From the IMG/VR virus record IMGVR_UViG_2718218308_000001: a stretch of 44,703 bases of DNA, one strand, 5' to 3'. How positions within the stretch are numbered: the first letter of the stretch is position 1; the number at the start of each line of letters is the position of its first letter. The position numbers and the translations under genes were made by a program. This DNA is from a virus (lineage: Duplodnaviria > Heunggongvirae > Uroviricota > Caudoviricetes). Of the stretch, positions 1 through 44,703 are shown piece by piece. Under the pieces are notes generated by a model that saw only the letters and a list, made by a program, of their open reading frames with translations, did not search any database and was not told the DNA's origin.

Positions 1-19
1 CTGTTTGATAAATATTAAA

Positions 20-1315: not shown

Positions 1316-1334
1316 TAGTTAGTGTGGCTTTTAG

Positions 1335-1586
1335 TCAAGTAAGATGACGTCTTGGTCTCGCTGATGCCTGGCGCTCAATCCAGCGATCAATTTCTTCCAG
1401 GTTGTAAAAGCATGGACTGTTATCCCATGGCATACCGTCATGAGCGACATGCTTATATTCCCTTCCTTCCATAAACGATTTTTCCCGGGCCTTTTTTAAC
1501 GTACCTTTTTTTATTCCTTTCAGCGCAATTAACTGCTCTTCGGATACCCATTTGCCGGGAGAGACAATCATGATTACTTCGCTCAT
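1335..1586 (-). CDS. Excisionase-like small DNA-binding protein
   Basis: 83-aa ORF directly upstream of and co-oriented with the integrase, the typical xis position. Called by position and size only. Confidence 0.55.
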   Translation of the reverse strand: MSEVIMIVSPGKWVSEEQLIALKGIKKGTLKKAREKSFMEGREYKHVAHDGMPWDNSPCFYNLEEIDRWIERQASARPRRHLT

Positions 1587-1658
1587 CGATTTCTTTATCT
1601 CTTACATCAGACGAGCGCCGGTTGCAGAATACCAGTCACAACCGGCGACAGTTGAACA

Positions 1659-3113: not shown

Positions 3114-3238
3114 GCCCTTTGTCGTCAGGTATTCGCAGATATATTTGTTCAGTGCTATGGGATCTTTGTGAATTGATCTTACCCAGCAATAGTGGACACG
3201 CGGCTAAGTGAGTAAACTCTCAGTCAGAGGTGACTCAC

Positions 3239-3538
3239 ATGACAAAAACAGTATCAACCAGTAAAAAACCCCGTAAACAGCATTCGCCTGAATTTCGCAG
3301 TGAAGCCCTGAAGCTTGCTGAACGCATCGGTGTTACTGCCGCAGCCCGTGAACTCAGCCTGTATGAATCACAACTCTACAACTGGCGCAGTAAACAGCAA
3401 AATCAGCAGACGTCTTCTGAACGTGAACTGGAGATGTCTACCGAGATTGCACGTCTCAAACGCCAGCTGGCAGAACGGGATGAAGAGCTGGCTATCCTCC
3501 AAAAGGCCGCGACATACTTCGCGAAGCGCCTGAAATGA
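3239..3538 (+). CDS. insE: IS3 transposase OrfA (InsE)
   Basis: 99-aa product [32 protein letters not shown]... with helix-turn-helix region; overlaps orfB as in IS3-family elements. Confidence 0.9.
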
Positions 3539-4401
3539 AGTATGTCTTTATTGAAAAACATCAGGCTGAGTTCAGCATCAAAGCAATGTGCCGCGTGCTC
3601 CGGGTGGCCCGCAGCGGCTGGTATACGTGGTGTCAGCGGCGGACAAGGATAAGCACGCGTCAGCAGTTCCGCCAACACTGCGACAGCGTTGTCCTCGCGG
3701 CTTTTACCCGGTCAAAACAGCGTTACGGTGCCCCACGCCTGACGGATGAACTGCGTGCTCAGGGTTACCCCTTTAACGTAAAAACCGTGGCGGCAAGCCT
3801 GCGCCGTCAGGGACTGAGGGCAAAGGCCTCCCGGAAGTTCAGCCCGGTCAGCTACCGCGCACACGGCCTGCCTGTGTCAGAAAATCTGTTGGAGCAGGAT
3901 TTTTACGCCAGTGGCCCGAACCAGAAGTGGGCAGGAGACATCACGTACTTACGTACAGATGAAGGCTGGCTGTATCTGGCAGTGGTCATTGACCTGTGGT
4001 CACGTGCCGTTATTGGCTGGTCAATGTCGCCACGCATGACGGCGCAACTGGCCTGCGATGCCCTGCAGATGGCGCTGTGGCGGCGTAAGAGGCCCCGGAA
4101 CGTTATCGTTCACACGGACCGTGGAGGCCAGTACTGTTCAGCAGATTATCAGGCGCAACTGAAGCGGCATAATCTGCGTGGAAGTATGAGCGCAAAAGGT
4201 TGCTGCTACGATAATGCCTGCGTGGAAAGCTTCTTTCATTCGCTGAAAGTGGAATGTATCCATGGAGAACACTTTATCAGCCGGGAAATAATGCGGGCAA
4301 CGGTGTTTAATTATATCGAATGTGATTACAATCGGTGGCGGCGGCACAGTTGGTGTGGCGGCCTCAGTCCGGAACAATTTGAAAACAAGAACCTCGCTTA
4401 G
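3535..4401 (+). CDS. insF: IS3 transposase OrfB (InsF), DDE integrase-like catalytic domain
   Basis: 288-aa ORF overlapping orfA in another frame; contains DDE-type residues (WAGDITY...HTDRGGQY...[10 protein letters not shown]). Confidence 0.9.
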
Positions 4402-4431
4402 GCCTGTGTCCATATTACGTGGGTAGGATCA

Positions 4432-4686
4432 CGTGGAAGTATGAGCGCAAAAGGTTGCTGCTACGATAATGCCTGCGTGGAAAGCTTCTTTCATTCGCTG
4501 AAAGTGGAATGTATCCATGGAGAACACTTTATCAGCCGGGAAATAATGCGGGCAACGGTGTTTAATTATATCGAATGTGATTACAATCGGTGGCGGCGGC
4601 ACAGTTGGTGTGGCGGCCTCAGTCCGGAACAATTTGAAAACAAGAACCTCGCTTAGGCCTGTGTCCATATTACGTGGGTAGGATCA
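4432..4686 (+). mobile_element. Partial IS3: tandem duplicate of the 3'-terminal 255 bp
   Basis: 4432..4686 repeats 4177..4431 (the insF 3' end plus right terminal repeat) immediately after the complete element. ORFs 4441..4656 (+) and 4429..4668 (-) are artefacts of this duplication. Confidence 0.85.
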
Positions 4687-4846
4687 CACCTCATGCCCCA
4701 GATGTTTTTTGTTTTCAGGAGAAAACTATATCGCAGAACTACGAACTAAACTTATGTCATAACTCATGCAAAAAACTCTTCGGCTAAACATTAAAAAAAT
4801 CTTATAATGCGAATCATATTTTGTTACATGTTCAGGAGCGCAAAGG

Positions 4847-5887
4847 ATGTCCCAGTACGACAAAGCCACGCAAACAGCAGGTTTAGTACGCATAACTAAT
4901 CAATTAGAGTCTATATACGGAACTTTTATTGATATGAAAGATATTAATTCCGTAGGAGAGCATAGGAAAGAAACTCTAATTACACGCTGTGTAGCTGCGC
5001 ATGCAATCAGCTTGTATGGTGATGAACCAGACCCTGAGTTAGCTGCTAATGCTGTCTGCGATGGAAAAGATGATGGCGGGATAGATGCAGTTTATGTTAA
5101 TAAAAATTCGAGAAAGATAGTAATAGTTCAGTCAAAATATATTAAAAATGGCGACGGTTCTATAACCACAAGAGAATTCGGAAGATTCAAAGACGCATGC
5201 GCAAAAGTAATAGCCAGCGACTTTACAACATTTAACGAAAGGTTTTTAAGAAACAAAGACTCCATAATTGAAGCAATCTCAGGATTTACATATAAATGTA
5301 TATGTGTATTTATATATACAGGGGTTCATGAGCCAAGCGAAGAAGTAAAATCAGACATAGAGTTTTGGGAAAAGGTTCAGAATCGGTCTCTATTATTTAA
5401 AGATATAGAGAATAGAGATGAGTATTCAGTGCTATTCGAGCCGGCAGGTATACAAGTGATAATGGATGGTCTTTCTAATGATCGATCAAAATCTATAAAT
5501 GTTAGCAATGTTCACCTTGAAAGTTATGGAGAGATAGCAGAACCTTATAAAGCAATATACGGAACAATATCCGCAAGGATCCTATACGACTGGTGGGAAA
5601 AGTACAAGTACTCTCTGTTCGAGAAAAATATAAGAAGTGTCCTCGGTAATTCATCCATAAACTCTGGGATAAAGAAAACATTAAGTGAAAAGCCGGAGAA
5701 TTTTTGGTACTATAACAATGGGATAACTGCTGTATATAGTGATGTAGAAGAAAGCATGATCAACTTAAGTACAAGCAGGAAGTACGGGCTATTTAGTTTT
5801 AAAAGTCTGAGTATAATAAATGGAGCTCAAACTGTAAGCACTATTGGTGAAGTGTTCAACTCTTTACCCGAAGAAATAAAGATCTAA
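4847..5887 (+). CDS. Candidate abortive-infection/defence protein, N-terminal part (PD-(D/E)xK nuclease-like motif; AIPR-like)
   Basis: 346-aa ORF in an AT-rich island. Motif GIDAVYVN...KIVIVQSKY fits a PD-(D/E)xK D...(E/Q)xK signature; a later NGAQT motif resembles AIPR-family Abi proteins as I recall them. Shine-Dalgarno-like AGGAG upstream. Family assignment unverified. Confidence 0.5.
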   Translation: MSQYDKATQTAGLVRITNQLESIYGTFIDMKDINSVGEHRKETLITRCVAAHAISLYGDEPDPELAANAVCDGKDDGGIDAVYVNKNSRKIVIVQSKYIKNGDGSITTREFGRFKDACAKVIASDFTTFNERFLRNKDSIIEAISGFTYKCICVFIYTGVHEPSEEVKSDIEFWEKVQNRSLLFKDIENRDEYSVLFEPAGIQVIMDGLSNDRSKSINVSNVHLESYGEIAEPYKAIYGTISARILYDWWEKYKYSLFEKNIRSVLGNSSINSGIKKTLSEKPENFWYYNNGITAVYSDVEESMINLSTSRKYGLFSFKSLSIINGAQTVSTIGEVFNSLPEEIKI

Positions 5888-5892
5888 TCAAG

Positions 5893-6621
5893 GTGAGCAT
5901 TAGATTTATCAGTGCAGCAAAAGAAGATTTTTTAACCTCTGTCACTAAATTCAACAATACACAAAACAGGGTTACTGGAAGAGATTTCTCATCACAGAGG
6001 CCCGAGCAACAAAGAATACAAAGAGAAATAAACTTTATTGGCGGATATAGCTACAAACTACTCAGGCAAGAAGACTCCAGCCAGACAGGTGGTAATACCA
6101 TTGATATTGATGATGCTTTAAACGCATTAGTGTGTGCCTCTAAAGATGAAACATTGATATCTTCCTTAAAACTAAATAGAGGACGTTTTTTTGAAAGCTG
6201 GGGAGGTCTTTATGAAAAAGTATTCCCAGCTGAAAATGGTCCTACCGGTTTAGATATAATAAATAAAGTAAATGCTTATAGATTAGCAAATGATATATTG
6301 CAAGAAAGTATAGTTAAACTACTATCAGTAGATATGGAAAATCAGAAGCAGATTCATCAAATAATGATTCATGGAAATTATGTTTTAATATCCATACTCA
6401 TGAATAAAATAGAAGTTTCCTCTGTGGAGAATCACATCTTCTCTTATAGCCGAAACGTTTCACTGGAGGAATGTATAGAGCTGGCTTCTGATACTTATAA
6501 TCACATACAGGAAGTCTTCCCCAATAGTTATATAGCAAGATTCTTCCAGAACAGAGAAAAAGTATTAAATATTATTAATCATCTACTAGGTAAAGAGCAG
6601 ATCATCGAATTGCAAGAGTAA
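5893..6621 (+). CDS. Second ORF of the candidate defence locus (C-terminal part of a frameshifted gene, or a separate partner gene)
   Basis: 242-aa ORF with GTG start 5 nt after the upstream stop, in a different frame; that frame is open from 5851, so one indel in 5851..5887 would fuse the two ORFs into about 590 aa. Followed by a strong terminator. Confidence 0.45.
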   Translation: MSIRFISAAKEDFLTSVTKFNNTQNRVTGRDFSSQRPEQQRIQREINFIGGYSYKLLRQEDSSQTGGNTIDIDDALNALVCASKDETLISSLKLNRGRFFESWGGLYEKVFPAENGPTGLDIINKVNAYRLANDILQESIVKLLSVDMENQKQIHQIMIHGNYVLISILMNKIEVSSVENHIFSYSRNVSLEECIELASDTYNHIQEVFPNSYIARFFQNREKVLNIINHLLGKEQIIELQE

Positions 6622-6623
6622 AA

Positions 6624-6657
6624 GTAAGAGCCACCTGCGGGTGGCTCTTACTTATTT
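6624..6657 (+). terminator. Rho-independent terminator after the candidate defence locus
   Basis: 12-bp perfect stem GTAAGAGCCACC / GGTGGCTCTTAC with TGCG loop, followed by TTATTT. Confidence 0.7.
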
Positions 6658-7299
6658 GACTCTACCATATGCTCGCATTTGCCATAACATATGTTGCGTA
6701 CGCTCAGAAATACGTGGAGGGCGTTTCTGGTCTAAAATCGTCAAGACACTCCATCATATATTCAGGAAATTGCTAATAATCGTGTAGGTGAATACTGCTT
6801 AAAATTCATATATATGAAATTGAACCTGTTGGCTTGCGTCGGACTTTGCGTATTAAAAGAAGTGCTGGTGGTGACTAGTGGTTGAGCTCCATTTCCACAG
6901 AAAAATCAGAGAAACCATACCCAATAGTTGTATTGAATCACGGACGAGACAGCCTCATATTTATCAGGACTGGTGTACGTCCAATACAGGAGGTTGTGGT
7001 GCTGGTTCTCAAATGTGCGCTGGCTATTACGGCTGTAATGGCGATTTATTGTCTTGCTATTGTTCTTATGGATCGCCTTTCTGACTGATTTCATATTGGC
7101 GAGGTAAAGGTAGTTAAGTAGAATGGCTGCGGGTGCTTGAGGCTATCTGCCTCGGGCATGAACACCAAAGGCAGATAGAGAAAAGCCCCAGTTAACATTA
7201 CGCGTCCTGCAAGACGCTTAACATTAATCTGAGGCCAATTTCATGCTAGACACATGTAGGTTAGCCTCTTACGTGCCGGAAGGCAAGGAGAAGCAGGCT

Positions 7300-7455
7300 A
7301 TGAAGCAGCAAAAGGCGATGTTAATCGCCCTGATCGTCATCTGTTTAACCGTCATAGTGACGGCACTGGTAACGAGGAAAGACCTCTGCGAGGTACGAAT
7401 CCGAACCGGCCAGACGGAGGTCGCTGTCTTCACAGCTTACGAACCTGAGGAGTAA
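7300..7455 (+). CDS. hokD: Hok/Gef-family membrane toxin (type I toxin)
   Basis: 51-aa product MKQQKAMLIALIVICLTVIVTALVTRKDLCEVRIRTGQTEVAVFTAYEPEE matches HokD/RelF of the K-12 Qin prophage as I recall it; AGGAGA ribosome-binding site upstream. The track ORF from 7243 is an in-frame upstream extension. Confidence 0.85.
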   Translation: MKQQKAMLIALIVICLTVIVTALVTRKDLCEVRIRTGQTEVAVFTAYEPEE

Positions 7456-7525
7456 GAGACCCGGCGAGGGAGAAATCCCTCGCCACCTCTGATGTGGCAG
7501 GCATCCTCAACGCACCCGCACTTAA

Positions 7526-7550
7526 CCCGCTTCGGCGGGTTTTTGTTTTT
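7526..7550 (+). terminator. Rho-independent terminator downstream of hok
   Basis: Hairpin CCCGC-TTCG-GCGGG followed by TTTTTGTTTTT; a second hairpin (GGCGAGGG / CCCTCGCC, 7463..7484) lies just upstream. Confidence 0.6.
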
Positions 7551-7671
7551 ATTTTCAACGCGTTTGAAGTTCTGGACGGTGCCGGAATAGAATCAAAAAT
7601 ACTTAAGTAGCGCGCAGGGATAAGAGGGATGGTCCCTTAAAGGGGAGAGCTAATTATCCGGAAGGATTCTG

Positions 7672-7923
7672 ATGATGAACATCGAAGAACTGCGTAAAAT
7701 TTTTTGTGAAGATGGCCTCTATGCTGTGTGCGTTGAAAATGGAAATCTTGTTAGTCATTACCGCATTATGTGTTTGCGAAAGAATGGGGCTGCGTTAATT
7801 AATTTTGTGGATGGTCGAGTGACAGACGGATTTATCTTGCGCGAAGGTGAGTTTGTCACTTCATTACAGGCACTGAAAGAGATCGGAATAAAAGCAGGCT
7901 TTTCAGCTTTTGCAGAAGAATAA
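7672..7923 (+). CDS. rem: Small prophage protein, Rem-like
   Basis: 83-aa ORF in the same position relative to hok and the DUF968 gene as rem in Qin. Called by size and synteny only. Confidence 0.45.
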   Translation: MMNIEELRKIFCEDGLYAVCVENGNLVSHYRIMCLRKNGAALINFVDGRVTDGFILREGEFVTSLQALKEIGIKAGFSAFAEE

Positions 7924-7989
7924 ACTCATCTACAATCTTGCGCGGGGCTGAACTCCCGCTGAGTAACACCGTGCCACCGGAGAAAACCG

Positions 7990-8268
7990 ATGGCACGCAA
8001 CGTAAAATATTACAATTCTGATAATTCGCCCGTTCTTGTCTGCACGCACGAGCGGTATTCTCACGCATTCAAGTCTGAATGGTTCCAACACCCTCCATGC
8101 ACTGAAGAGCAGGCTGAATGGATAATTCAGTGTTACCGCAGGCGCGGATACGAGGTTAAGAAAGCCCTTAGTCTCGACTACCGTCACTGGATAATCTCAG
8201 TCAGATTGCCTTACTCCGAACGCCCACCGCGTCCGTCCCGTACATTCCAGCAACGCATCTGGAGGTAA
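7990..8268 (+). CDS. Hypothetical protein
   Basis: 92-aa ORF between the rem-like and DUF968 genes, co-oriented; no recognisable motif. Confidence 0.3.
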   Translation: MARNVKYYNSDNSPVLVCTHERYSHAFKSEWFQHPPCTEEQAEWIIQCYRRRGYEVKKALSLDYRHWIISVRLPYSERPPRPSRTFQQRIWR

Positions 8269-8269
8269 C

Positions 8270-9319
8270 GTGCGGGTATTACTTCGACCTGTTCTGGTAC
8301 CGGAACTTGGGCTGGTGGTCGTTAAGCCGGGCCGTGAATCCATGCCGGTATTCCACAATACCCGGGTACTGGTGGAGCCGGAACCGAAAAGCATGCGTAA
8401 TCTGCCGTCCGGGGTCGTTCCTGCCGTTCGCCAGCCGCTGGTGGAAGACAAAACATTGCTGCCGTTTTTCAGTAACGCACGGGTAATTCGTGCTGCTGGT
8501 GGTGCTGGTGCATTGTCTGACTGGCTGTTGCGCCATATTAAATCCTGCCAGTGGCCACACGGCGATTATCATCACAGCGAAACCGTTATTCACCGATATG
8601 GTACCGGCGCAATGGTGTTGTGCTGGCACTGCGACAACCAGCTGCGTGACCAGACATCCGAATCACTCGAGCAACTTGCTCATCAAAACCTGTCAGCATG
8701 GATGATTGACGTCATCGGTCACGCAATAAGCGGTACGCAGGAGCGTGAATTATCTCTGGCTGAATTATCCTGGTGGGCGGTCCGCAATCAGCTGGCGGAC
8801 GCGCTACCGGAAGCGGTATTACGTCGCTCGCTGGGATTACCAGCGGAAAAAATCTGCTCGGTGTACCGCGAAAGCGACATCGTACCGGGAGAGCAGACCG
8901 CCACCAGCATATTGAAACAGCGCACAAAAAATCTTGCACCGTTGCCTCACGCCCACCAGCAACAAAACCCATCACAGGAAAAGACGGTGGTAAGCATCAC
9001 CGTTGATCCAGAGTCTCCGGAATCTTTCATGAAGCTGCCTAAACGTCACCGGTGGGTTAAGGAGAAATACACACGCTGGGTTAAGACACAGCCGTGTGCT
9101 TGCTGCGGTATGCCAGCCGACGATCCGCATCATCTGATTGGTCACGGGCAGGGCGGAATGGGAACCAAAGCACATGATCTCTTTGTTTTGCCTTTGTGCA
9201 GAAAGCATCACGACGAGTTGCATACGGATACCGTGGCATTTGAAGAGAAGTATGGCTCCCAACTGGAGCTGATTTTTCGATTTATCGATCGCGCGCTGGC
9301 AATTGGTGTGCTGGCCTAA
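8270..9319 (+). CDS. ydfU: DUF968-family prophage protein with HNH-like zinc-finger nuclease motif (YdfU-like)
   Basis: 349-aa ORF; C-terminus [21 protein letters not shown]...CRKHHDELH has Cys/His spacing typical of HNH modules; directly upstream of the Q-like gene as in Qin. Confidence 0.65.
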
Positions 9320-9321
9320 TT

Positions 9322-9714
9322 TTGTGGAGTAAGTTGATGCGTGATATTCAGATGGTTCTTGAGCGTTGGGGGGCATGGGCGGCTAATAATCATGAAGATG
9401 TGACCTGGTCGTCCATTGCCGCCGGTTTTAAGGGATTAATTCCTTCAAAAGTAAGATCTCGTCCGCAATGCTGTGACGATGACGCGATGATCATTTGTGA
9501 ATGTATGGCTCGCCTGAAAAAAAACAACAGCGATTTACATGATTTATTGGTGGACTATTATGTCGGCGGCATGACTTTTATGGCGCTTGCACGTAAGCAT
9601 GGGCGATCTGATTGTTGGGTTGGCAGGATGCTCCAGAAAGCTGAGGGCGTAGTGGAGGGCATGCTGATGGTGTTGGATCTCCGATTGGAGATGGATGCTG
9701 ATTGTTCGAAATAA
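9322..9714 (+). CDS. quuQ: Late-gene antiterminator Q-like protein
   Basis: 130-aa ORF immediately after the DUF968 gene and upstream of a short region ending in a terminator (PR'/tR' arrangement); Cys-rich central region. Confidence 0.65.
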
Positions 9715-9869: not shown

Positions 9870-10394
9870 TTATTGTTTAACCCATAATAGTTCATTGACA
9901 TTGAATCCCAACTTTTGAGCGGTACGCACATAGTCTGCTTTTACATTATCTGGAATAGTTTGGGTCCTTGCCAGAATCCATAGGTATTCTCTGTTCGGAC
10001 CACTGACAAGAGCATACTTATACTCATCATCCAGTTTGATTACATTATAGCCACCATAGAAGGGGCCAAAAAACGAAACTTTCAACGCTGCAGTTTTAGT
10101 ATCTCCAGTAAAGTATGCTTTACCTTCGCTCTCGCTCCATTTGTTTTTCGTTGGATCGTATCCACGGTTAAGTACGCGAATCCCTCCGTCGTTCCGTTTT
10201 TCATAAGTAGCGCTGACCTGTTCCAGACCACGTTCGAACCAGTTCTCGAGGCGAGCTATTTCATACCATTTTCCGAGGTAGCGGTTGGCGTCAAAATTTG
10301 TAATCGGCTGCACACCTTTAGGTTGTGTCGGGGCCTTACATGCTATAAGAGTGAAAGAGAGTGCAATGCCAGTCAACACAGGCCATAACTTCAT
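9870..10394 (-). CDS. Outer-membrane lipocalin, Blc-like lipoprotein (cargo gene)
   Basis: 174-aa ORF with lipoprotein signal and lipobox (LIAC); lipocalin motifs GKWYEIAR and SFFGPFYGGYNVI; strong resemblance to E. coli Blc. Opposite strand to the phage late operon. Confidence 0.85.
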   Translation of the reverse strand: MKLWPVLTGIALSFTLIACKAPTQPKGVQPITNFDANRYLGKWYEIARLENWFERGLEQVSATYEKRNDGGIRVLNRGYDPTKNKWSESEGKAYFTGDTKTAALKVSFFGPFYGGYNVIKLDDEYKYALVSGPNREYLWILARTQTIPDNVKADYVRTAQKLGFNVNELLWVKQ

Positions 10395-10586: not shown

Positions 10587-11546
10587 ATGATAAAAAAACC
10601 TGTGATTGGGATCAGCGGTTGTTTGGGCGGTTCTGCTGTTCGTTTTGATGGTGGTCACAAAAGAGATGACTTTTTAATGGACAAATTAGTGGAATGGGTA
10701 ACATTCAGACCAGTATGTCCGGAAATGGCTATAGGGCTGCCAGTTCCGCGTCCTGCTCTACGACTTGTGCGCTCGAAGCAAGGAAATATACGGATGTGTT
10801 TCAGCCACGACCAGAATGAGGATGTGACAGAGAGAATGACAGAGTTTAGTCGTTCTTATATGGACAAATTAAAGGATGTATCGGGGTTTGTGGTTTGTGC
10901 TAAATCTCCCAGCTGTGGCATGGAGCGCGTGCGTGTCTATGATGAAAATGGTAATCGAGGTCGTAAAGATGGAGTGGGACTATTTACGAGCACTTTGATG
11001 GAAAAGTTTTCCTGGCTACCGGTTGAAGAGGATGGGCGATTACATGATCCAGTGCTTCGTGAGAATTTTATTGAAAGAGTTTTTGCTTTGCATGAGCTCA
11101 ATCACCTTTACAAGGAGAAATTATCAAGAAGAGAGTTATTAGCTTTTCATAGTCGTTATAAGCTTCAGTTGTTGGCGCATAGCCAGGCAGGCTATAAAGA
11201 TATGGGACCATTTGTGGCTGCAATACACGAGTGGGCGGACCTTGAATCATACTTTGAGGTGTATCGTGATAATCTGATGGCGATTCTCAGAAAACCAGCA
11301 TCACGTAAAAATCACACGAATGTGCTGATGCATATACAGGGGTATTTTAGTAATTACTTAAGTACACGCCAGCGTAAAGAGTTGAGCGAGGTTATACTTA
11401 ACTATCGCTTTGGCACATTGCCTCTTCTTGCGCCGTTGACTCTGCTGAAGCATTATCTGGGTGAGTATCCTAATGATTACTTGCTTACACAGAATTACTT
11501 CGATCCCTATCCGGAAGAACTGGCTCTAAGACTGATGGTGAATTAA
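10587..11546 (+). CDS. YbgA-like protein (DUF523 Cys-rich domain plus DUF1722 domain) (cargo gene)
   Basis: 319-aa ORF; N-terminal conserved cysteines (GISGCLGG, CPEM, SPSCG) typical of DUF523/TudS-like Fe-S proteins; GGAGG ribosome-binding site. Domain assignment from memory. Confidence 0.6.
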   Translation: MIKKPVIGISGCLGGSAVRFDGGHKRDDFLMDKLVEWVTFRPVCPEMAIGLPVPRPALRLVRSKQGNIRMCFSHDQNEDVTERMTEFSRSYMDKLKDVSGFVVCAKSPSCGMERVRVYDENGNRGRKDGVGLFTSTLMEKFSWLPVEEDGRLHDPVLRENFIERVFALHELNHLYKEKLSRRELLAFHSRYKLQLLAHSQAGYKDMGPFVAAIHEWADLESYFEVYRDNLMAILRKPASRKNHTNVLMHIQGYFSNYLSTRQRKELSEVILNYRFGTLPLLAPLTLLKHYLGEYPNDYLLTQNYFDPYPEELALRLMVN

Positions 11547-11943: not shown

Positions 11944-12666
11944 GTGGATAATATGTCATACATATGTTCTATCATTTTGGTGTTGAACTCGTTTGGTGTC
12001 CGAATTGGTAAAGAAGATATTTTGTTTAAAAAAGGAAATGCTGTCCTCATTGAATACAATTTAAAAGATCTTTTTTCGTCAAATACAGATCATCTAATGA
12101 TCGTAGATGTTGAGGAGAAAACAGTTAATGATTTCTTTAAAAACTACACACTCTCACCTTTTTCTGTAAGAAGGTTTTATCCGTCATACTTGATAGTAGA
12201 ATGTGAAGATTTTTCATTGTTAAAGAACTTGGTTGCATGCTTGAATTGTGATAGCAAAACCGTGGATGTAGTTAGAAATCAAATATCACTTGCATGTCTT
12301 GCTGTCTTATCTTCAGAGAAAATAGTGCAAAGTTTTTTGTTCGGAAGTCTTAATAGCTTAGGTTGTAAAGTTAAGGCTATTATTCACTCGGATATCTCAG
12401 CGTCATGGAGACTTTGTGATATATCTTCAAGATTATATATGAGCGAGAGTTTGTTAAAAAGAAAATTAAAAGACGAAGGATTATCGTTTAGTAAATTAAT
12501 TCTTGAAGAACGAATGATGATGGCGCAAAGATTATTGATCTACAGTAACCATACTGTCGGCAAGGTGGCGGGAATATGCGGGTATGACAATGCATCATAT
12601 TTTGTAAGTGTTTTTAGAAGATATTTTGGTGTGCCTCCGCACCAATATTTATCAAGATTTTCTTAG
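11944..12666 (+). CDS. AraC-family transcriptional regulator, AppY/EnvY-like (cargo gene)
   Basis: 240-aa ORF in very AT-rich DNA; C-terminal AraC-type helix-turn-helix (GYDNASYFVSVFRRYFGVPPHQY) resembling the prophage-borne regulator AppY. Confidence 0.75.
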   Translation: MDNMSYICSIILVLNSFGVRIGKEDILFKKGNAVLIEYNLKDLFSSNTDHLMIVDVEEKTVNDFFKNYTLSPFSVRRFYPSYLIVECEDFSLLKNLVACLNCDSKTVDVVRNQISLACLAVLSSEKIVQSFLFGSLNSLGCKVKAIIHSDISASWRLCDISSRLYMSESLLKRKLKDEGLSFSKLILEERMMMAQRLLIYSNHTVGKVAGICGYDNASYFVSVFRRYFGVPPHQYLSRFS

Positions 12667-12856
12667 AAGATATGATGTGATGGCATTTTATAAAGTTATT
12701 TTTTGAAGTGTAAGATTATACGATATTTTTAGCTACGCCAGAATAATTGCTGGCGTTTTTCTTTTTGAATAGATGTTCGGGCCTTACGCTAATGTAACTT
12801 CTTTCCTTCTTCGAACCAAACCGTGTACACCATCCGTTATCTGCGGAGGTGAGGCT

Positions 12857-13072
12857 ATGAAATCCATGGATAAGTTAACAACGGGCATCGCCTACAGCAC
12901 CTCTGCAGGCAGTGCTGGCTACTGGTTTTTACAGTTGCTCGATAAAGTCACGCCCTCACAGTGGGCGGCAATAGGTGTATTGGGTAGTCTGGTATTTGGC
13001 ATGCTGACGTATCTGACAAATCTTTATTTCAAGATTAAAGAAGACAGGCGTAAGGCTGCGAGAGGAGAGTAA
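12857..13072 (+). CDS. essQ: Holin, class II (phage 21 S-like)
   Basis: 71-aa product [71 protein letters not shown] with two transmembrane segments and a charged C-terminus; GGAGGTGAGG ribosome-binding site. Confidence 0.8.
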
Positions 13073-13076
13073 TCCA

Positions 13077-13271
13077 ATGACTCAAGACTATGAACTGGTT
13101 GTGAAAGGAGTCCGTAATTTTGAGAATAAAGTTACGGTAACTGTAGCCTTACAGGACAAAGAACGCTTTGACGGTGAAATTTTTGACCTGGATGTCGCCA
13201 TGGACCGTGTTGAAGGAGCTGCGCTGGAGTTTTATGAGGCAGCAGCCAGAAGGAGCGTCCGGCAAGTCTGA
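13077..13271 (+). pseudogene. ydfR: ydfR-like lysis-cassette gene interrupted by IS3
   Basis: 64-aa ORF whose stop codon TGA is formed by the first bases of IS3; the same frame resumes after the IS for a further 38 codons (14527..14643), restoring an ORF of about 102 aa. Confidence 0.7.
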
Positions 13272-13333
13272 TCTTACCCAGCAATAGTGGACACGCGGCT
13301 AAGTGAGTAAACTCTCAGTCAGAGGTGACTCAC

Positions 13334-13633
13334 ATGACAAAAACAGTATCAACCAGTAAAAAACCCCGTAAACAGCATTCGCCTGAATTTCGCAGTGAAG
13401 CCCTGAAGCTTGCTGAACGCATCGGTGTTACTGCCGCAGCCCGTGAACTCAGCCTGTATGAATCACAACTCTACAACTGGCGCAGTAAACAGCAAAATCA
13501 GCAGACGTCTTCTGAACGTGAACTGGAGATGTCTACCGAGATTGCACGTCTCAAACGCCAGCTGGCAGAACGGGATGAAGAGCTGGCTATCCTCCAAAAG
13601 GCCGCGACATACTTCGCGAAGCGCCTGAAATGA
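13334..13633 (+). CDS. insE: IS3 transposase OrfA (InsE), copy 2
   Basis: Same protein as copy 1. Confidence 0.9.
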
Positions 13634-14496
13634 AGTATGTCTTTATTGAAAAACATCAGGCTGAGTTCAGCATCAAAGCAATGTGCCGCGTGCTCCGGGT
13701 GGCCCGCAGCGGCTGGTATACGTGGTGTCAGCGGCGGACAAGGATAAGCACGCGTCAGCAGTTCCGCCAACACTGCGACAGCGTTGTCCTCGCGGCTTTT
13801 ACCCGGTCAAAACAGCGTTACGGTGCCCCACGCCTGACGGATGAACTGCGTGCTCAGGGTTACCCCTTTAACGTAAAAACCGTGGCGGCAAGCCTGCGCC
13901 GTCAGGGACTGAGGGCAAAGGCCTCCCGGAAGTTCAGCCCGGTCAGCTACCGCGCACACGGCCTGCCTGTGTCAGAAAATCTGTTGGAGCAGGATTTTTA
14001 CGCCAGTGGCCCGAACCAGAAGTGGGCAGGAGACATCACGTACTTACGTACAGATGAAGGCTGGCTGTATCTGGCAGTGGTCATTGACCTGTGGTCACGT
14101 GCCGTTATTGGCTGGTCAATGTCGCCACGCATGACGGCGCAACTGGCCTGCGATGCCCTGCAGATGGCGCTGTGGCGGCGTAAGAGGCCCCGGAACGTTA
14201 TCGTTCACACGGACCGTGGAGGCCAGTACTGTTCAGCAGATTATCAGGCGCAACTGAAGCGGCATAATCTGCGTGGAAGTATGAGCGCAAAAGGTTGCTG
14301 CTACGATAATGCCTGCGTGGAAAGCTTCTTTCATTCGCTGAAAGTGGAATGTATCCATGGAGAACACTTTATCAGCCGGGAAATAATGCGGGCAACGGTG
14401 TTTAATTATATCGAATGTGATTACAATCGGTGGCGGCGGCACAGTTGGTGTGGCGGCCTCAGTCCGGAACAATTTGAAAACAAGAACCTCGCTTAG
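13630..14496 (+). CDS. insF: IS3 transposase OrfB (InsF), copy 2
   Basis: Same protein as copy 1. Confidence 0.9.
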
Positions 14497-14645
14497 GCCT
14501 GTGTCCATATTACGTGGGTAGGATCAGTCTTCCTGGAAGTAGCAGAAAAATTGTCAGAAAAAGTTGAGTCTTATCTGCAGCATCAGTACTCCTTTAAGAT
14601 TGAAAATCCTGCCAATAAGCACGAGCGTCCTCATCATAAATATAT

Positions 14646-18883: not shown

Positions 18884-22564
<3,681 letters not shown>

Positions 22565-37790: not shown

Positions 37791-40700
37791 ATGAATATGG
37801 CAGTAAAGATTTCAGGTGTACTGAAAGACGGCACAGGAAAACCGGTACAGAACTGCACAATCCAGCTGAAAGCAAAACGTAACAGTACCACTGTGGTGGT
37901 GAACACGCTGGCCTCAGAAAATCCGGATGAAGCCGGGCGTTACAGCATGGACGTTGAGTACGGTCAGTACAGCGTTATTCTGTTGGTGGAAGGATTCCCG
38001 CCGTCACATGCCGGGACCATCACCGTGTATGAAGATTCTCAACCCGGTACGCTGAATGATTTTCTCGGTGCCATGACGGAGGATGATGCCCGTCCGGAGG
38101 CACTGCGCCGTTTTGAACTGATGGTGGAAGAGGTGGCGCGTAACGCGTCCGCGGTGGCACAGAACACGGCAGCCGCGAAGAAGTCAGCCAGTGATGCCAG
38201 CACATCAGCCCGTGAGGCGGCAACCCATGCGGCTGATGCTGCGGACTCAGCACGCGCAGCCAGCACGTCAGCCGGACAGGCCGCGTCGTCGGCTCAGTCA
38301 GCGTCTTCCAGCGCAGGAACGGCATCAACAAAGGCCACTGAAGCCTCAAAAAGTGCTGCCGCTGCAGAGTCCTCAAAAAGCGCGGCGGCCACCAGTGCCG
38401 GTGCGGCGAAAACGTCAGAAACGAATGCGGCAGCGTCAGAACAATCAGCCGCCACTTCTGCATCCACCGCGACCACGAAAGCGTCAGAAGCAGCCACTTC
38501 AGCACGGGATGCGTCGGCTTCAAAAGAGGCGGCAAAATCATCAGAAACGAGCGCAGCCTCGAGCGCCAGTAGTGCAGCCTCCTCGGCAACAGCGGCAGGA
38601 AATTCCGCGAAGGCGGCAAAAACGTCCGAGACGAACGCCAGGTCTTCTGAGACGGCAGCGGGACAGAGCGCCTCAGCTGCGGCAGGCTCAAAAACAGCGG
38701 CTGCGTCGTCTGCCAGTGCCGCGTCAACAAGTGCCGGGCAGGCCTCAATCAGTGCCACCGCAGCCGGAAAATCGGCAGAAAGCGCCGCATCATCCGCTTC
38801 AACAGCCACAACGAAGGCTGGCGAAGCCGCTGAACAGGCCAGCGCAGCAGCGAGGTCTGCATCCGCAGCGATGACATCCGAAACGAACGCGAAAGCCTCG
38901 GAAACCAGTGCAGAATCCTCAAAAATGGCAGCTGCATCGTCCGCCAGTTCGGCGGCGTCATCGGCATCATCTGCGTCTGCTTCAAAAGATGAGGCGAGCA
39001 GACAGGCATCAGCAGCGAAAGGCAGCGCCACGACGGCATCCACGAAGGCGACAGAGGCAGCTGGTAGTGCGACGGCGGCAGCTCAGAGCAAAAGTACGGC
39101 GGAATCCGCGGCAACGCGCGCCGAGACAGCAGCAAAACGGGCAGAGGATATTGCATCCGCCGTGGCGCTTGAGGATGCGAGCACGACGAAAAAGGGGATA
39201 GTACAGCTCAGCAGTGCGACCAACAGCACTTCCGAGTCACTGGCGGCAACGCCAAAAGCCGTTAAGGCCGCGTATGACCTGGCTAACGGGAAATACACCG
39301 CACAGGATGCAACGACAGCACAGAAAGGGATAATCCAGCTAAGCAGCGCGACCAACAGCACGTCTGAAACGCTGGCGGCAACGCCAAAGGCAGTAAAAGC
39401 AGCCAATGACAATGCTGAGAAACGTCTGCAGAAAGATCAGAACGGTGCGGATATCCCTGGCAAAGACACCTTTACGAAAAATATTGGTGCCTGCCGTGCC
39501 TTCGGTGGGTCAGTAAGCACAACAACAGGAAACTGGACGACTGCACAGTTTATCGAGTGGCTGGATTCTCAGGGAGCATTTAACCATCCATACTGGATGT
39601 GCAAGGGTTCCTGGTCTTATGGCAATAATAAAATCATTACTGATACTGGCTGCGGTAATATTCATCTCGCCGGAGCTGTCATTGAAGTAATGGGGATAAA
39701 GTCAGCGATGACGATCCGCATTACCACACCGACCACCTCCACTGGTGGTGGAACAACTAACGCCCAGTTTACCTATATTAATCACGGAACAGATTATTCA
39801 CCTGGCTGGCGAAGGGACTATAACTCCAGAAATAAGCCAACGGCATCAGAGATCGGGGCGTTACCGTCAGGTGGAACAGCAGTATCATCAGTTAATCTGT
39901 CTTCAAAAGGTCGGGTAACCGCGCTGACAGACAATACGCAGGGGGCAACAGGTCTTGAGTTATACGAGGTGTATAACAACGGATATCCAACAGCGTATGG
40001 AAATATCATTCACCTGAAAGGGATGACAGCCGTTGGCGAAGGTGAGTTACTCATCGGCTGGAGTGGTACAAGCGGTGCTCATGCTCCGGCATTTATTCGT
40101 TCACGACGGGATACGACCGACGCAAACTGGTCGCCGTGGGCGCAGCTTTACACCTCGGCTCATCCTCCTGCAGAGTTTTATCCAGTCGGTGCACCAATCC
40201 CGTGGCCATCAGATACCGTTCCGTCTGGTTATGCCCTGATGCAGGGGCAGACTTTTGACAAATCTGCTTACCCGAAACTTGCAGCCGCTTATCCGTCAGG
40301 CGTGATCCCTGATATGCGTGGCTGGACGATTAAGGGCAAGCCCGCCAGTGATCGAGCCGTATTGTCTCAGGAACAGGACGGCATTAAATCACACACCCAC
40401 AGCGCCAGCGTATCCAGTACGGATTTGGGGACGAAAACCACATCGTCGTTTGATTACGGCACTAAATCCACGAATAACACTGGTGCGCATACCCATAGTG
40501 TTAGCGGTACGGCTGCTTCAGCCGGTGCACATACCCATTCGATGACATTTGTTTCAGGTGGTTCCAGTGGTGCTCCGGGAAGTGGATCACCTGATTATTC
40601 TAAATACAGTGTTAACACTTCTTCTGCAGGCGCTCATACGCACTCTGTATCGGGTACTGCTGCAAGCGCAGGTGCACACGCACATACTGTCGGTATTGGT

Positions 40701-40820
40701 GCTCATACGCACTCCGTTGCGATTGGTTCACATGGACATACCATCACCGTTAACGCTGCTGGTAACGCGGAAAACACCGTCAAAAACATCGCATTTAACT
40801 ATATTGTGAGGCTTGCATAA
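37791..40820 (+). CDS. stf: Side tail fibre protein Stf
   Basis: 1009-aa ORF after lom; long Ala/Ser/Thr-rich repetitive shaft; C-terminal region with repeated GAHTHS / HxH motifs. Confidence 0.9.
38100..39130 (+). repeat. Coding low-complexity tandem-repeat region inside stf (Ala/Ser/Thr-rich units)
   Basis: Recurring units such as SASSAS...AAKTSETNA...SE(T/S)SA; every frame on both strands is open here, which generates the long spurious ORFs in the track. Confidence 0.8.
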
Positions 40821-41395
40821 TGGCATTCAGAATGAGTGAACAACCACGGACCATAAAAATTTATAATCTGCTGGCCGGAACTAATGAATTTATTGGTGAA
40901 GGTGACGCATATATTCCGCCTCATACAGGTCTGCCAGCAAACAGTATCGATATTGCACCGCCAGATATTCCGGCAGGCTTCGTGGCTGTTTTCAACAGTG
41001 ATGAGGCATCGTGGCATCTCGTTGAAGATCATCGGGGTAAAACGGTTTATGACGTGGCTTCCGGCGACGCGTTATTTATTTCTGAACTCGGTCCGTTACC
41101 GGAAAATGTTACCTGGTTATCGCCGGGAGGGGAATATCAGAAGTGGAACGGCACAGCCTGGGTGAAGGATACGGAAGCAGAAAAACTGTTCCGGATCCGG
41201 GAGGCGGAAGAAACAAAAAACAGCCTGATGCAGGTAGCCAGTGAGCATATTGCGCCGCTTCAGGATGCTGCAGATCTGGAAATTGCAACGGAGGAAGAAA
41301 TCTCGTTGCTGGAAGCATGGAAAAAGTATCGGGTATTGCTGAACCGTGTTGATACGTCAACTGAACAGGATATTGAATGGCCAGCACTGCCGTAG
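40820..41395 (+). CDS. tfa: Tail fibre assembly protein Tfa
   Basis: 191-aa ORF immediately after stf with overlapping stop/start. Confidence 0.85.
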
Positions 41396-41492: not shown

Positions 41493-42083
41493 TTATATGT
41501 CAGGTGTCTGAAGTTTTGCTTTGGCTCTTAAAATGGTTTGCCGCGAGGTTTTGAATTCCCGGGCAATGGCACTTATACTTACACCTGACTTAATTCGTTC
41601 GAATACCACCTGTTTCTGTTCTTCATTTAACACAGGTGGTCGACCAAAACGTTTCCCTGCGCCCCGGGCTCTTACTATCCCGGAATGAGTGCGTTCAAGT
41701 AAAAGGTCTCGTTCAAATTCAGCGACTGCTGAAATTACTTGCATCATCATTTTTCCTGTTGGACTGGTCAGGTCAATGCCCCCCAATGCTAAGCAATGCA
41801 CTCTGATACCTGTTTCGGTCAGTTGTTCCACTGTTTTCCTGATATCCATTGCATTACAACCAAGGCGATCCAGTTTTGTCACAATCAATTGATCACCACA
41901 TTTCAGGCGAGCAAGCAACCGGTTAAAACCAGGACGCTCACTGGTTGCTGCTGAGCCGCTAATGTGTTCTTCGATTATTTGCTGAGGTTTGATTTTAAAA
42001 CCTGCACTTTCGATTTCCCGGCGTTGATTTTCGGTGGTCTGATCCAGCGTTGATATCCGACAGTAAGCAAAAATTCGAGACAT
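41493..42083 (-). CDS. pin: Serine DNA invertase, Pin family
   Basis: 196-aa product [29 protein letters not shown]... with N-terminal catalytic serine motif and C-terminal helix-turn-helix; matches PinQ/PinR as I recall them. Confidence 0.9.
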
Positions 42084-42399
42084 AGTGAGACTCTATACGA
42101 AATTGGTGTTCATATCATAATGCATCTCAGAAAATAATTTTGATTATTTTTGTGCATATTTGTATGTACACGTTCGAAAATAAACGAATGCGTATGCAAC
42201 CCCGTAATTTTGGTGAGACCCAAAATCGATTTTGTGAAAAATGGCTTTAACTCGGTTTGTTTTTCGAGTTCCGGGCGGACTCAAGGAAGAAGAATAGTGT
42301 TGCGTGTTATTTTAACCAGATTTCAAGTTGTTTGGTCGTGGAAAAGTGGAGCAAAATGTTGTTAAAGTGGAAAAATGATAAAAAAGTAAGTTTATTATA

Positions 42400-42666
42400 T
42401 TACATTTTACCATTTAAATTTTGGTTGTCTTTAAGAACTGATATCGCTGTTTGTAATAATTCTTTGTTATCCAGCCATGATTTTTTCTTTATGTTTCCTT
42501 CAATGTAATCAAGCAATGTTCTGGTATTGATAGGTCTTCCCTGTTTTGCTACTTCCACTACAGCATCCCCTAGGATAATTCTTACTTCAGGAAGCTGCGC
42601 AGGGAACCACTTTAGGGTGTCTTTTGATTTCATGAAGATATTCCTTAAAATATTATTGATTTTCAT
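42400..42666 (-). CDS. ydfK: Small prophage protein YdfK/YnaE-like
   Basis: ORF containing MKSKDTLKWFPAQLPEVRIILGDAVVEVAKQG...; the true start is probably the internal Met (giving 42400..42633). Confidence 0.6.
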   Translation of the reverse strand: MKINNILRNIFMKSKDTLKWFPAQLPEVRIILGDAVVEVAKQGRPINTRTLLDYIEGNIKKKSWLDNKELLQTAISVLKDNQNLNGKM

Positions 42667-43419
42667 TGCGATATTGTATGTCTGATTCAGGATATGTTGA
42701 CTTATACATCGGTTTTGTCTGGGTTATTGGATATGCCAATCCCTAATTTTATTAGGGCATGACTAAAAATGCTGAATATGATAAGGAGAGATGTGATTAT
42801 CAGTATGCTGTTCATATAGCCTCGAATTAGTAATGTGTTATATATGATATAGTTGACAATTTTTATCTTGGGTGTTCTTAAAGTTCGTAGATAAACATTG
42901 TCGTTTCAGGTATACAGGAATGCTAACAGGTGGCAGCAAAAATCAGGCGGTTTATGGCGCAAGCTGAAGCGGCAACTGCAAACTATCTTATGCAGAGACT
43001 CTACACGGATTGGGTTTAAAAGTATACATAGATAACAGTTTTTATCTGAAAAATAAAAATATCAAGGTGATATAGCCTATATGCCTTTGATGCGGAGGAA
43101 TGAATGTGATGGGAGTGATGTATCTGAATAGTTGAAAAACCGCAGACACGCCTTATGCAAGAACGTGCTGCGGTTGGCTGGTAAATTTTTCGATAGTGTG
43201 AGTATTGAATGATTTCCAGCCGTTCTTGATTTTACGCATAAATCCATGAAAAAACTACTTATCTGTTGGGGAGTTTTTTTTGGGGCATATATGGGACAGA
43301 AATAGGCCCCAGATAGACACTGAGATCGAACTTAGGATGCTTTTTAAAAAATGCAACTATCTGAAAAAACCTAGAAAACGCCAAGGAAACCACAGGATGG
43401 GAAAAAACACCTGTGAATT

Positions 43420-44703
43420 ATGGATTTCCAGTTATATTCGCTCGGCGCAGCGTTAGTGTTTCATGAAATATTTTTTCCTGAATCATCAACGGCAATGGCG
43501 TTAATTCTGGCAATGGGAACCTACGGTGCAGGTTATGTGGCGCGTATTGTCGGAGCATTTATTTTCGGCAAAATGGGCGACAGAATAGGGCGTAAAAAAG
43601 TGCTCTTTATTACCATCACCATGATGGGGATCTGTACCACCTTAATTGGTGTGTTACCGACCTATGCACAGATTGGTATTTTTGCACCCATCTTGCTGGT
43701 GACGTTGCGTATTATTCAGGGGTTGGGTGCAGGTGCGGAAATTTCCGGTGCCGGTACGATGCTGGCGGAATATGCGCCAAAAGGTAAGCGCGGAATTATC
43801 TCCTCATTTGTGGCTATGGGAACTAACTGCGGAACCTTGAGCGCAACGGCAATCTGGGCCTTTATGTTCTTCATTCTCAGTAAAGAGGAACTGCTGGCGT
43901 GGGGATGGCGTATACCGTTCCTGGCGAGCGTTGTCGTGATGGTCTTTGCTATCTGGTTGCGTATGAATCTGAAAGAAAGCCCGGTCTTTGAGAAGGTTAA
44001 CGACAGTAACCAACCGACAGCAAAACCTGCACCTGCTGGTAGCATGTTCCAGAGCAAATCCTTCTGGCTGGCAACAGGGCTGCGTTTTGGTCAGGCGGGT
44101 AACTCCGGGTTAATTCAGACTTTCCTTGCAGGCTATTTAGTGCAGACGTTATTGTTTAACAAAGCAATTCCAACAGATGCATTGATGATCAGTTCGATTC
44201 TCGGCTTTATGACCATTCCGTTCCTTGGTTGGTTATCCGATAAAATTGGTCGCCGGATCCCGTATATTATTATGAATACCTCCGCGATTGTGCTGGCATG
44301 GCCAATGCTTTCTATCATTGTAGATAAAAGCTATGCCCCGAGCACCATTATGGTTGCACTGATTGTGATTCATAACTGTGCGGTGCTGGGATTATTTGCT
44401 CTGGAAAACATTACCATGGCAGAAATGTTCGGCTGTAAAAACCGCTTTACCCGGATGGCTATTTCTAAAGAAATTGGTGGTCTTATCGCTTCCGGTTTTG
44501 GTCCTATCCTGGCGGGTATTTTCTGCACCATGACGGAATCCTGGTATCCGATCGCCATTATGATCATGGCATATTCAGTGATTGGTTTAATCTCTGCGCT
44601 GAAAATGCCAGAGGTGAAAGACCGTGATTTAAGTGCGCTGGAAGACGCTGCGGAAGATCAACCGCGTGTTGTAAGAGCTGCGCAACCTTCCAGAAGTCTG
44701 TAA
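43420..44703 (+). CDS. ydfJ: MFS transporter (YdfJ-like), 5'-truncated at the prophage junction
   Basis: 427-aa ORF with the MFS signature GDRIGRKK after only about one and a half transmembrane segments, so the first helix is missing. Confidence 0.8.
   Translation: MDFQLYSLGAALVFHEIFFPESSTAMALILAMGTYGAGYVARIVGAFIFGKMGDRIGRKKVLFITITMMGICTTLIGVLPTYAQIGIFAPILLVTLRIIQGLGAGAEISGAGTMLAEYAPKGKRGIISSFVAMGTNCGTLSATAIWAFMFFILSKEELLAWGWRIPFLASVVVMVFAIWLRMNLKESPVFEKVNDSNQPTAKPAPAGSMFQSKSFWLATGLRFGQAGNSGLIQTFLAGYLVQTLLFNKAIPTDALMISSILGFMTIPFLGWLSDKIGRRIPYIIMNTSAIVLAWPMLSIIVDKSYAPSTIMVALIVIHNCAVLGLFALENITMAEMFGCKNRFTRMAISKEIGGLIASGFGPILAGIFCTMTESWYPIAIMIMAYSVIGLISALKMPEVKDRDLSALEDAAEDQPRVVRAAQPSRSL

Follow-up and report, generated by a model that had tools for sequence, protein, structure and literature searches.

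Where does the prophage end and the bacterial chromosome begin at the right edge of the 44,703-nucleotide stretch of DNA recorded as IMG/VR entry IMGVR_UViG_2718218308_000001 (the whole of which we call the window), and what has become of the transporter gene, ydfJ, that lies across this edge? The window begins slightly within the left end of a lambda-like prophage and runs to the ydfJ stop codon. An earlier note, made from the sequence alone, had proposed that the prophage is inserted into ydfJ, as is the Qin prophage of Escherichia coli K-12, and that the attachment (att) site lies somewhere in the ~750 AT-rich bp preceding the gene. We find, with a confidence close to certainty, that positions 42667-43430 are the right (attR) end of a lambda-like prophage inserted in ydfJ through a Qin-type junction. 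This junction is already known from the K-12 annotation and from three papers (PMC6379469, PMC8112680, PMC6001520).

The open reading frame (ORF) at 43420-44703 on the plus strand encodes a 427-amino-acid MFS transporter (Pfam MFS_1, E = 1.5e-36), and the equivalent gene in other genomes bears the RefSeq name "MHS family MFS transporter YdfJ" together with the flag "incomplete; missing N-terminus". Full-length ydfJ in strains L6-21, HB42 and M00057, which have no prophage at this site, is 1368 bp long and encodes 455 amino acids; it begins 57 bp downstream of rspB in the order rspA-rspB-ydfJ-ydfI, whose presumed substrates are L-gulonate and D-mannonate-type sugar acids. BLAST alignment of the window to uninterrupted alleles, a check named beforehand in the earlier note, breaks at 43414: homology to intact ydfJ begins there, ~6 nt before the ATG. 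The 427 residues correspond to residues 29-455 of L6-21 YdfJ with a single substitution (V115I). The window ydfJ begins at the native internal Met29, and 28 codons are gone; full-length alleles start 28 codons upstream, and not at this Met as they would if the gene were not truncated.

The note had also suggested that the ORF starts partway through its first membrane helix, and here hydrophobicity and the Pfam alignment starts agree with it. Intact YdfJ opens with a charged stretch, MTIEKHERSTKDLVK, followed by AAVSGWLGTALEF and MDFQLYSLGAALVFHEIFFP, with the cut falling between the latter two (around the cut, the whole intact N-terminus reads MTIEKHERSTKDLVKAAVSGWLGTALEF before it and MDFQLYSLGAALVFHEIFFP after it). 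Together AAVSGWLGTALEF and MDFQLYSLGAALVFHEIFFP form one unbroken, moderately hydrophobic segment (Kyte-Doolittle 19-residue mean ~1.0), the first of two such hydrophobic segments ahead of the MFS loop motif GDRIGRKK. The MFS_1 alignment starts at profile position 2 in intact YdfJ versus position 33 in the truncated form. The truncation thus appears to fall within the first membrane helix, although a sequence search of the PDB for a solved YdfJ homologue by which to place helix 1 gave no match. MHS-family members of the MFS have 12 transmembrane helices and the loop 2-3 motif; the window protein keeps the MFS_1 match and GDRIGRKK, but it lacks residues 1-28 and the first ~31 MFS_1 profile positions, and is an incomplete member, a truncated remnant of the family.

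To define the core of the junction, we aligned attR from the window and from K-12, attL from strain Ecol_224 and from K-12, attB from L6-21, and attP from phages mEp460 and Tritos. A perfect block of 11 bp, TTATGGATTTC, at 43418-43428, is common to attP, attB, attL and attR; it is identical in phage and bacterial sites and duplicated at the two prophage ends, as in lambda-type integration. Imperfect flanks widen the att region to 18 or 19 bp at 43414-43431, and this four-way alignment together with the BLAST break points delimits the attR core region (43414-43431, plus strand) as TGAATTATGGATTTCCAG. An att of matching length, 18 or 19 bp, has been published for ydfJ prophages, likewise through comparison of attP, attB, attL and attR (PMC8112680). 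The bacterial attB reads GCGCTTGAATTTATGGATTTC CAGTTATATT and attP of mEp460 reads CACCTGTGAATT-ATGGATTTC AAGAGTCATA; attR, in both the window and K-12 Qin, reads CACCTGTGAATT-ATGGATTTC CAGTTATATT, and attL of Ecol_224 and K-12 reads GCGCTTGAATTTATGGATTTC AAGAGTCATG. The phage spelling TGAATT-ATGG is therefore kept in attR and the bacterial spelling TGAATTTATGG in attL. Since the two spellings differ to the left of the block, strand exchange lies on the right of this point and took place within the block itself. An inverted repeat, TGAA/TTCA, brackets the attP block around the 7 bp TTATGGA, which is the likely overlap region; we infer the position of exchange within the 11-bp block from these sequences. 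The insertion lies in ydfJ codons 27-32, as is expected of a Qin-type prophage, and the ATG at 43420 belongs to the att core, being both native ydfJ codon 29 and phage attP sequence.

Free phages provided independent proof of the boundary. We assembled a predicted attP from window positions 43000-43428, 18 nt from attL and window positions 1-400, and searched it against 50,697 phage records. It was contiguous in four free phages: PhiR42_1 (99.5% identity), mEp460_ev081 (99.4%), HannyBb (98.9%) and Tritos (98.5%). All four, like the reconstruction, run from the P arm through TGAATTATGGATTTC and AAGAGTC into the integrase gene int, with invertase, ydfK and ynfT genes on one side of attP and int and xis on the other. 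These are complete, propagating phage genomes, unlike the window element. As attP is contiguous in free phages, everything to the left of 43414 is phage DNA. The Tritos core carries one substitution, ATGCATTTC, where the others have ATGGATTTC; this mismatch to attB lies in the presumed overlap and might reduce the efficiency of integration at ydfJ.

The other half of ydfJ had been expected beyond the integrase gene, outside the window, and that is where genomes with a 99.9%-identical int end hold ydfJ nt 1-93. Our reference for the left junction was Ecol_224, in which the int-xis-exo end matches window positions 1-2500 at 99.9% identity. Its left end consists of rspB, ydfJ nt 1-93, the 18 nt AAGAGTCATGCGTGTTAA, and then the sequence of window position 1; the K-12 attL likewise has ydfJ nt 1-93, then AAGAGTCATGCGTGTTAA and onward as from window position 1. 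The BLAST break at this junction lies at ydfJ nt 93 or 96, and the 5' fragment of ydfJ in Ecol_224-type genomes stops 37 bp past the int stop codon. Position 1 of the window corresponds to 18 nt after the core, and window positions 1-20 equal positions 1501-1520 of record L004. Positions 1-19 thus represent the inner P' arm, the attL core and the adjoining 18 nt AAGAGTCATGCGTGTTAA lying just outside the window. The missing 5' part of ydfJ should lie ~18 nt to the left of window position 1, and the left flank would be expected to read rspB, ydfJ nt 1-77, TGAATTTATGGATTTC and AAGAGTCATGCGTGTTAA. In K-12 the 5' fragment is annotated as ynfP, which encodes 36 amino acids and reads into the phage, ending EFMDFKSHAC; the published YnfP sequence is MTIEKHERSTKDLVKAAVSGWLGTALEFMDFKSHAC (PMC6001520).

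The parallel with Qin in K-12 proved correct. In NC_000913.3 the "cryptic prophage Qin" is annotated at 1632277..1652745, so that it extends over the initial 9 nt (ATGGATTTC) of the 427-aa ydfJ; ynfP and ynfT are both listed. The attR of K-12 MG1655 is identical to that of the window over the aligned 110 nt, with an equal core and the same 427-aa ydfJ. The order stfQ-tfaQ-pinQ-ydfK-ynfT-attR at the right end and the attL type with ynfP are also shared; pinQ-ydfK-ynfT match K-12 along with attR, and positions 42300-44703 are 99.7% identical over their full length. In contrast to the window element, K-12 Qin is a 20.5-kb remnant that lacks head and tail genes and has intQ disrupted by IS2, whereas the window element, at ~44.7 kb, has intact int and xis genes and a full late region but has lost the early region and carries two copies of the insertion sequence (IS) IS3. 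What sets the window element apart from K-12 Qin is solely how far each has decayed.

We then determined how common such insertions are across 5426 complete E. coli genomes, using megablast of window positions 42300-44703 and a 136-bp probe centred on attB. The attB site was uninterrupted in 2012 of the genomes, and nearly all of the remaining 3357 matching genomes matched one side of the core only, so that the ydfJ site is interrupted in ~62% of complete E. coli genomes. The entire 42300-44703 segment, representing the Qin-type right end, was matched in 1985 genomes (~37%); among the 638 strains of an earlier survey, 48% had Qin (PMC6379469). Other genomes formed smaller groups matching only from 43140, 43154 or 43281, and a large group matching only from 43414. 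Among known prophages at the same locus, the PPydfJ prophages of Shiga toxin-producing E. coli (STEC; PMC8112680, S7 Fig) share with the window the P arm from 43281 and the core, but have DinI-like and DUF1076 (nleG-type) genes in place of ydfK and ynfT beside attR. STEC PPydfJ prophages often occur in tandem clusters (Nakamura et al. 2021, PMC8112680). Thus ydfJ is among the busiest lambdoid integration sites in E. coli, and each insertion separates ydfJ-ydfI from rspAB.

These observations are best explained by the following course of events. Site-specific recombination by a tyrosine integrase placed the prophage in ydfJ codons 27-32, with exchange inside TTATGGATTTC, common to attP and attB, splitting the gene in two. 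The first ~93 nt of ydfJ stayed beside int at attL (ynfP in K-12), and the gene from Met29 onward ended up at attR. The 3' part thereby lost its start codon, its ribosome-binding site and its promoter link to rspAB, together with the N-terminus on the cytoplasmic side and the initial half of its first transmembrane helix. Exact excision would be expected to restore CTTGAATTTATGGATTTCCAG and the 455-aa ydfJ. In agreement with this scheme, loss of the promoter and of 28 N-terminal codons has been described for Qin integration at the 5' end of ydfJ (PMC6379469). Because of the lost start, ribosome-binding site, promoter link and N-terminus, the window ydfJ is most likely a dead remnant. An in-frame TGA (43414-43416), supplied by the phage arm, lies two codons ahead of its ATG, and direct reading revealed no Shine-Dalgarno-like sequence within 20 nt upstream of the ATG. 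PGAP marks the 3' part of ydfJ as a pseudogene in other genomes, one of which has an additional frameshift in the remnant.

Other readings of the junction were weighed against this one. K-12 RefSeq lists the 427-aa product as an ordinary coding sequence (CDS), "putative transporter YdfJ", and the ORF does start with ATG, as would be the case if the short form were a natural, complete allele with the prophage beside the gene and not inside it. We give this reading next to no chance, since the gene is uninterrupted in 2012 genomes, where it has 28 further codons and is contiguous with rspB, the upstream 84 nt of ydfJ are found at the opposite end of the prophage, and the short form drops the first ~31 MFS_1 profile positions and is flagged by PGAP as missing its N-terminus; the intact alleles and the att alignment already refute it. 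It could also be supposed that phage and chromosome meet at another point of the AT-rich 750 bp, such as near ydfK, and that the intervening DNA is a chromosomal remnant or separate islet. The region is indeed a mosaic, with genomes that match the window from 43140, 43154 or 43281 and a segment (43137-43242) that is also present in HK97 and in phages with other integrases. These break points are phage module boundaries and not a chromosome junction: free phages carry ydfK/ynfT through 43428 joined directly to the P' arm and int, and the intact chromosomes of L6-21, HB42 and M00057 hold none of the interval. A junction elsewhere in the interval is therefore extremely improbable.

The state of the truncated gene leaves somewhat more room for disagreement. 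A prophage-borne promoter and translation from Met29 could keep ydfJ alive as an 11.5-helix transporter or a regulator, which would explain an ORF that stays open in ~2000 genomes. In favor of this idea, the ORF is intact with one substitution in 427 residues relative to the full-length protein, ydfJ is differentially expressed after DicC induction in K-12 (bioRxiv 10.1101/2024.09.21.614188), and K-12 annotators retain it as a CDS. Yet there is no Shine-Dalgarno sequence within 20 nt, an in-frame stop codon stands two codons upstream, no plus-strand promoter-like site was found from 42651 up to the ATG, the protein lacks half of its first transmembrane helix, and at least one genome has a further frameshift; the open ORF may merely reflect a recent, clonally inherited insertion. 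We consider a living ydfJ unlikely. Three points nonetheless weigh against our preferred reading of a ydfJ inactivated by Qin-type integration. EcoCyc and RefSeq still list the 427-aa product of K-12 as a CDS, and the loss of function is deduced from the gene's structure; attL of this prophage lies beyond the window edge and is read from 99.9%-identical ends in other genomes; and, with the early region lost and IS3 copies present, the integration would be an ancestral event that this copy could not repeat unaided.

Given this reading of the junction, the right boundary of the prophage can be set to the base, at 43414-43431. The att site expected in the AT-rich 750 bp is indeed present, but it is confined to the right edge of this stretch, where it overlaps the ATG, and the rest is phage cargo. 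For annotation, ydfJ in the window is a 5'-truncated remnant (43420-44703, plus strand; residues 29-455 of a 455-aa MHS-family MFS transporter), and the 750-bp "intergenic" stretch consists of phage cargo and an attP arm, not of chromosome.

The recombination machinery lies at the opposite end of the window. The tyrosine integrase gene int (20-1315, minus strand) matches Pfam Arm-DNA-bind_2 (PF12167, 1.6e-23) and Phage_integrase (PF00589, 4e-18), and its translation, read by eye, contains VRPGE, SRHT, MGH and QVYGKW, thus displaying the R..HxxR..H..Y pattern of tyrosine recombinases. Next to it is xis (1335-1586, minus strand), whose homologue is annotated as excisionase in Ecol_224, mEp460, Tritos, HannyBb and PhiR42_1. 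On the other side of the core, a P arm of ~135 bp in attP/attR (43281-43413, plus strand) is common to all three classes of ydfJ prophage that we found. The homology of the attR of O157 strain Al Ain starts exactly at 43281, and this position opens TGGGGCATATATGGGACA, which is invariant across three diverged attR classes. It coincides with a tandem TGGGGCA-N4-TGGGACA (43281-43298, plus strand), with the two copies 11 bp apart, and a similar pair, TGGGGCA-N4-TGGGGCA, lies on the P' arm at 42-59 (plus strand), within the 3' end of int. TGGGRCAN4TGGGRCA occurs only at these two places on either strand of the 44.7 kb, in one orientation (shuffle expectation 0.00); the TGGGRCA pattern was chosen after seeing the data, and conservation alone is uninformative at 42-59 as this motif lies within the int coding sequence. 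In the reconstituted attP, the pairs would be spaced ~120-140 bp (P side) and ~60-80 bp (P' side) from the core. We read the tandem TGGGRCA pairs, whose motif was defined post hoc, as candidate arm-type Int sites, which the P arm probably contains.

Much of this arrangement resembles that of phage lambda, which also encodes a tyrosine integrase whose arm-binding domain is separate, has its int and xis genes beside attP with int reading toward attP, and uses a short core that phage and host share exactly; the geometry of the candidate arm sites is lambda-like. The two differ in the family of the arm-binding domain (Arm-DNA-bind_2 in the window), in the core and in the candidate arm motif. The lambda target is the intergenic gal-bio site, whereas the target here lies within a coding sequence, which the insertion probably inactivates, and a hairpin of the lambda sib type is absent from the window.

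The interval 42667-43430 has a GC content of 37.3%, below the 50.1% of the window as a whole and the 47.0% of ydfJ. Most of it is ordinary phage DNA with ynfT, a hairpin module and the P arm; the core takes up only the final 17-18 bp. The gene to its left had been called ydfK-like and is annotated as ydfK, for cold shock protein YdfK, in matching genomes (42400-42633, minus strand; 77 aa as annotated there, with the longest ORF reaching 42666). It is followed by ynfT (42702-42815, minus strand), encoding a 37-aa small protein of the YnaM/YnfT family whose translation is identical to the K-12 protein (PMC6001520). A mosaic module at ~43000-43242 is also found in phages with other integrases (Turner, Kati, PhiR63_1 and HK97), and positions 43137-43242 (minus strand) are 88.8% identical to HK97 20943-21048. 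Within this HK97-type module we observed a minus-strand hairpin (43145-43182) with a stem of 12-15 bp followed by a U run, UUUUUCAAC (dG -20.7 kcal/mol, z -3.4), which is conserved in HK97 and other lambdoid phages and looks like a terminator. In the free phage it could terminate int transcripts crossing attP and would be the first terminator-like structure that they meet; in the prophage it sits upstream of ynfT-ydfK. Our simple terminator scan missed it, as its loop is longer than 8 nt. The phage search had listed the HK97 "sib retroregulation site" beneath the module match, and we considered whether the hairpin is a lambda-style sib/tI retroregulator. This was rejected: only 7 nt are common to HK97 20943-21048 and the annotated sib (21042-21091), which adjoins the homologous stretch, and nothing in the window corresponds to the lambda-type sib hairpin.

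Other searches of the region yielded nothing above chance. The minus-strand fold of 43200-43415, covering the P arm, was no better than shuffles (z -0.7), and an Rfam scan of 42000-43600 returned only sub-threshold chance matches (CssrB, with 24 bits where the cut-off is 76, and mir-263). The promoter/terminator scan was at chance level (5 promoter-like sites vs. 4.6 expected), and no plus-strand promoter-like site was found in it between 42651 and the ydfJ ATG. The sole genome that is 100% identical to window positions 42300-44703, that of EC21Z-137, has an extra ISKpn26 (IS5-like) within the ynfT-attR interval (2144-3124 of record L005), indicating that this AT-rich stretch is itself an IS target, and also has an IS1 between pinQ and ydfK.

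A core-like sequence, TTGAATGATTTCCAG, lies at 43208-43222, ~200 bp to the left of the true core and inside the HK97-type module. The P arm is absent altogether from 15 Stx2a-phage records, in which TATGGATTTC-AAGAGTC and the 3' end of int directly adjoin the module (e.g., Stx2a_EH1535, 640-670 of record L011). The Stx2a junction, GAGTATT+TATGGAT+TTCAAG, is the product expected from exchange between attP and the pseudo-core if the overlap is phage-derived. When the module around 43208-43222 was compared with the ydfJ attB region, no similarity was found beyond the 9-mer GATTTCCAG, and 62 of 300 shuffles scored as well. It is conceivable, although we would give it only a small chance, that the TGGGRCA pairs are arm elements of the little-studied Arm-DNA-bind_2 integrases and that TTGAATGATTTCCAG is at the same time a secondary att site yielding the Stx2a junctions. 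If so, TTGAATGATTTCCAG would offer a further route for prophage-in-prophage integration or Int-mediated rearrangement.

The rest of the window shows how far the prophage has decayed. The late region is complete and 97% identical to phage PhiR42_1 over 25 kb, and the right end carries genes for a tail fibre (37791-40820), tail fibre assembly (40820-41395) and a Pin-type invertase (41493-42083, minus strand). By contrast, immunity and replication functions appear to have been lost: at 4700-9700, between int-xis and the truncated exonuclease gene on one side and a DUF968 gene (8270-9319) and a Q antiterminator gene (9322-9714) on the other, no repressor, cro or replication genes were seen, with ORFs of <50 aa and 6878-7923 being outside the family scan. 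With the early region apparently deleted, the prophage is probably defective, even though its late region is complete.

The two IS3 copies (3174-4431 and 13269-14526) are identical, 1258 bp long and in direct orientation, and 256 bp of the IS3 right end are repeated in tandem (4432-4687) directly after the first copy. This copy cuts the exonuclease to 484 aa, as compared with the 2472-bp exonuclease gene annotated in Ecol_224, and the resulting exo::IS3 junction had no match in the 5426 complete E. coli genomes or in GTDB species representatives. Just past this IS3 copy, adjacent ORFs on the same strand (4847-5887 and 5893-6621) both match Pfam AIPR (abortive-infection phage resistance), at profile positions 1-75 and 94-159, and look like one defence gene that a frameshift or stop codon has broken in two. 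The stretch from Q to the holin gene carries cargo for a lipocalin (9870-10394, minus strand), a 2-thiouracil desulfurase/DUF1722 protein (10587-11546) and an AraC-family regulator (11944-12666). The second IS3 directly follows the P21-type holin gene (12773-13072).

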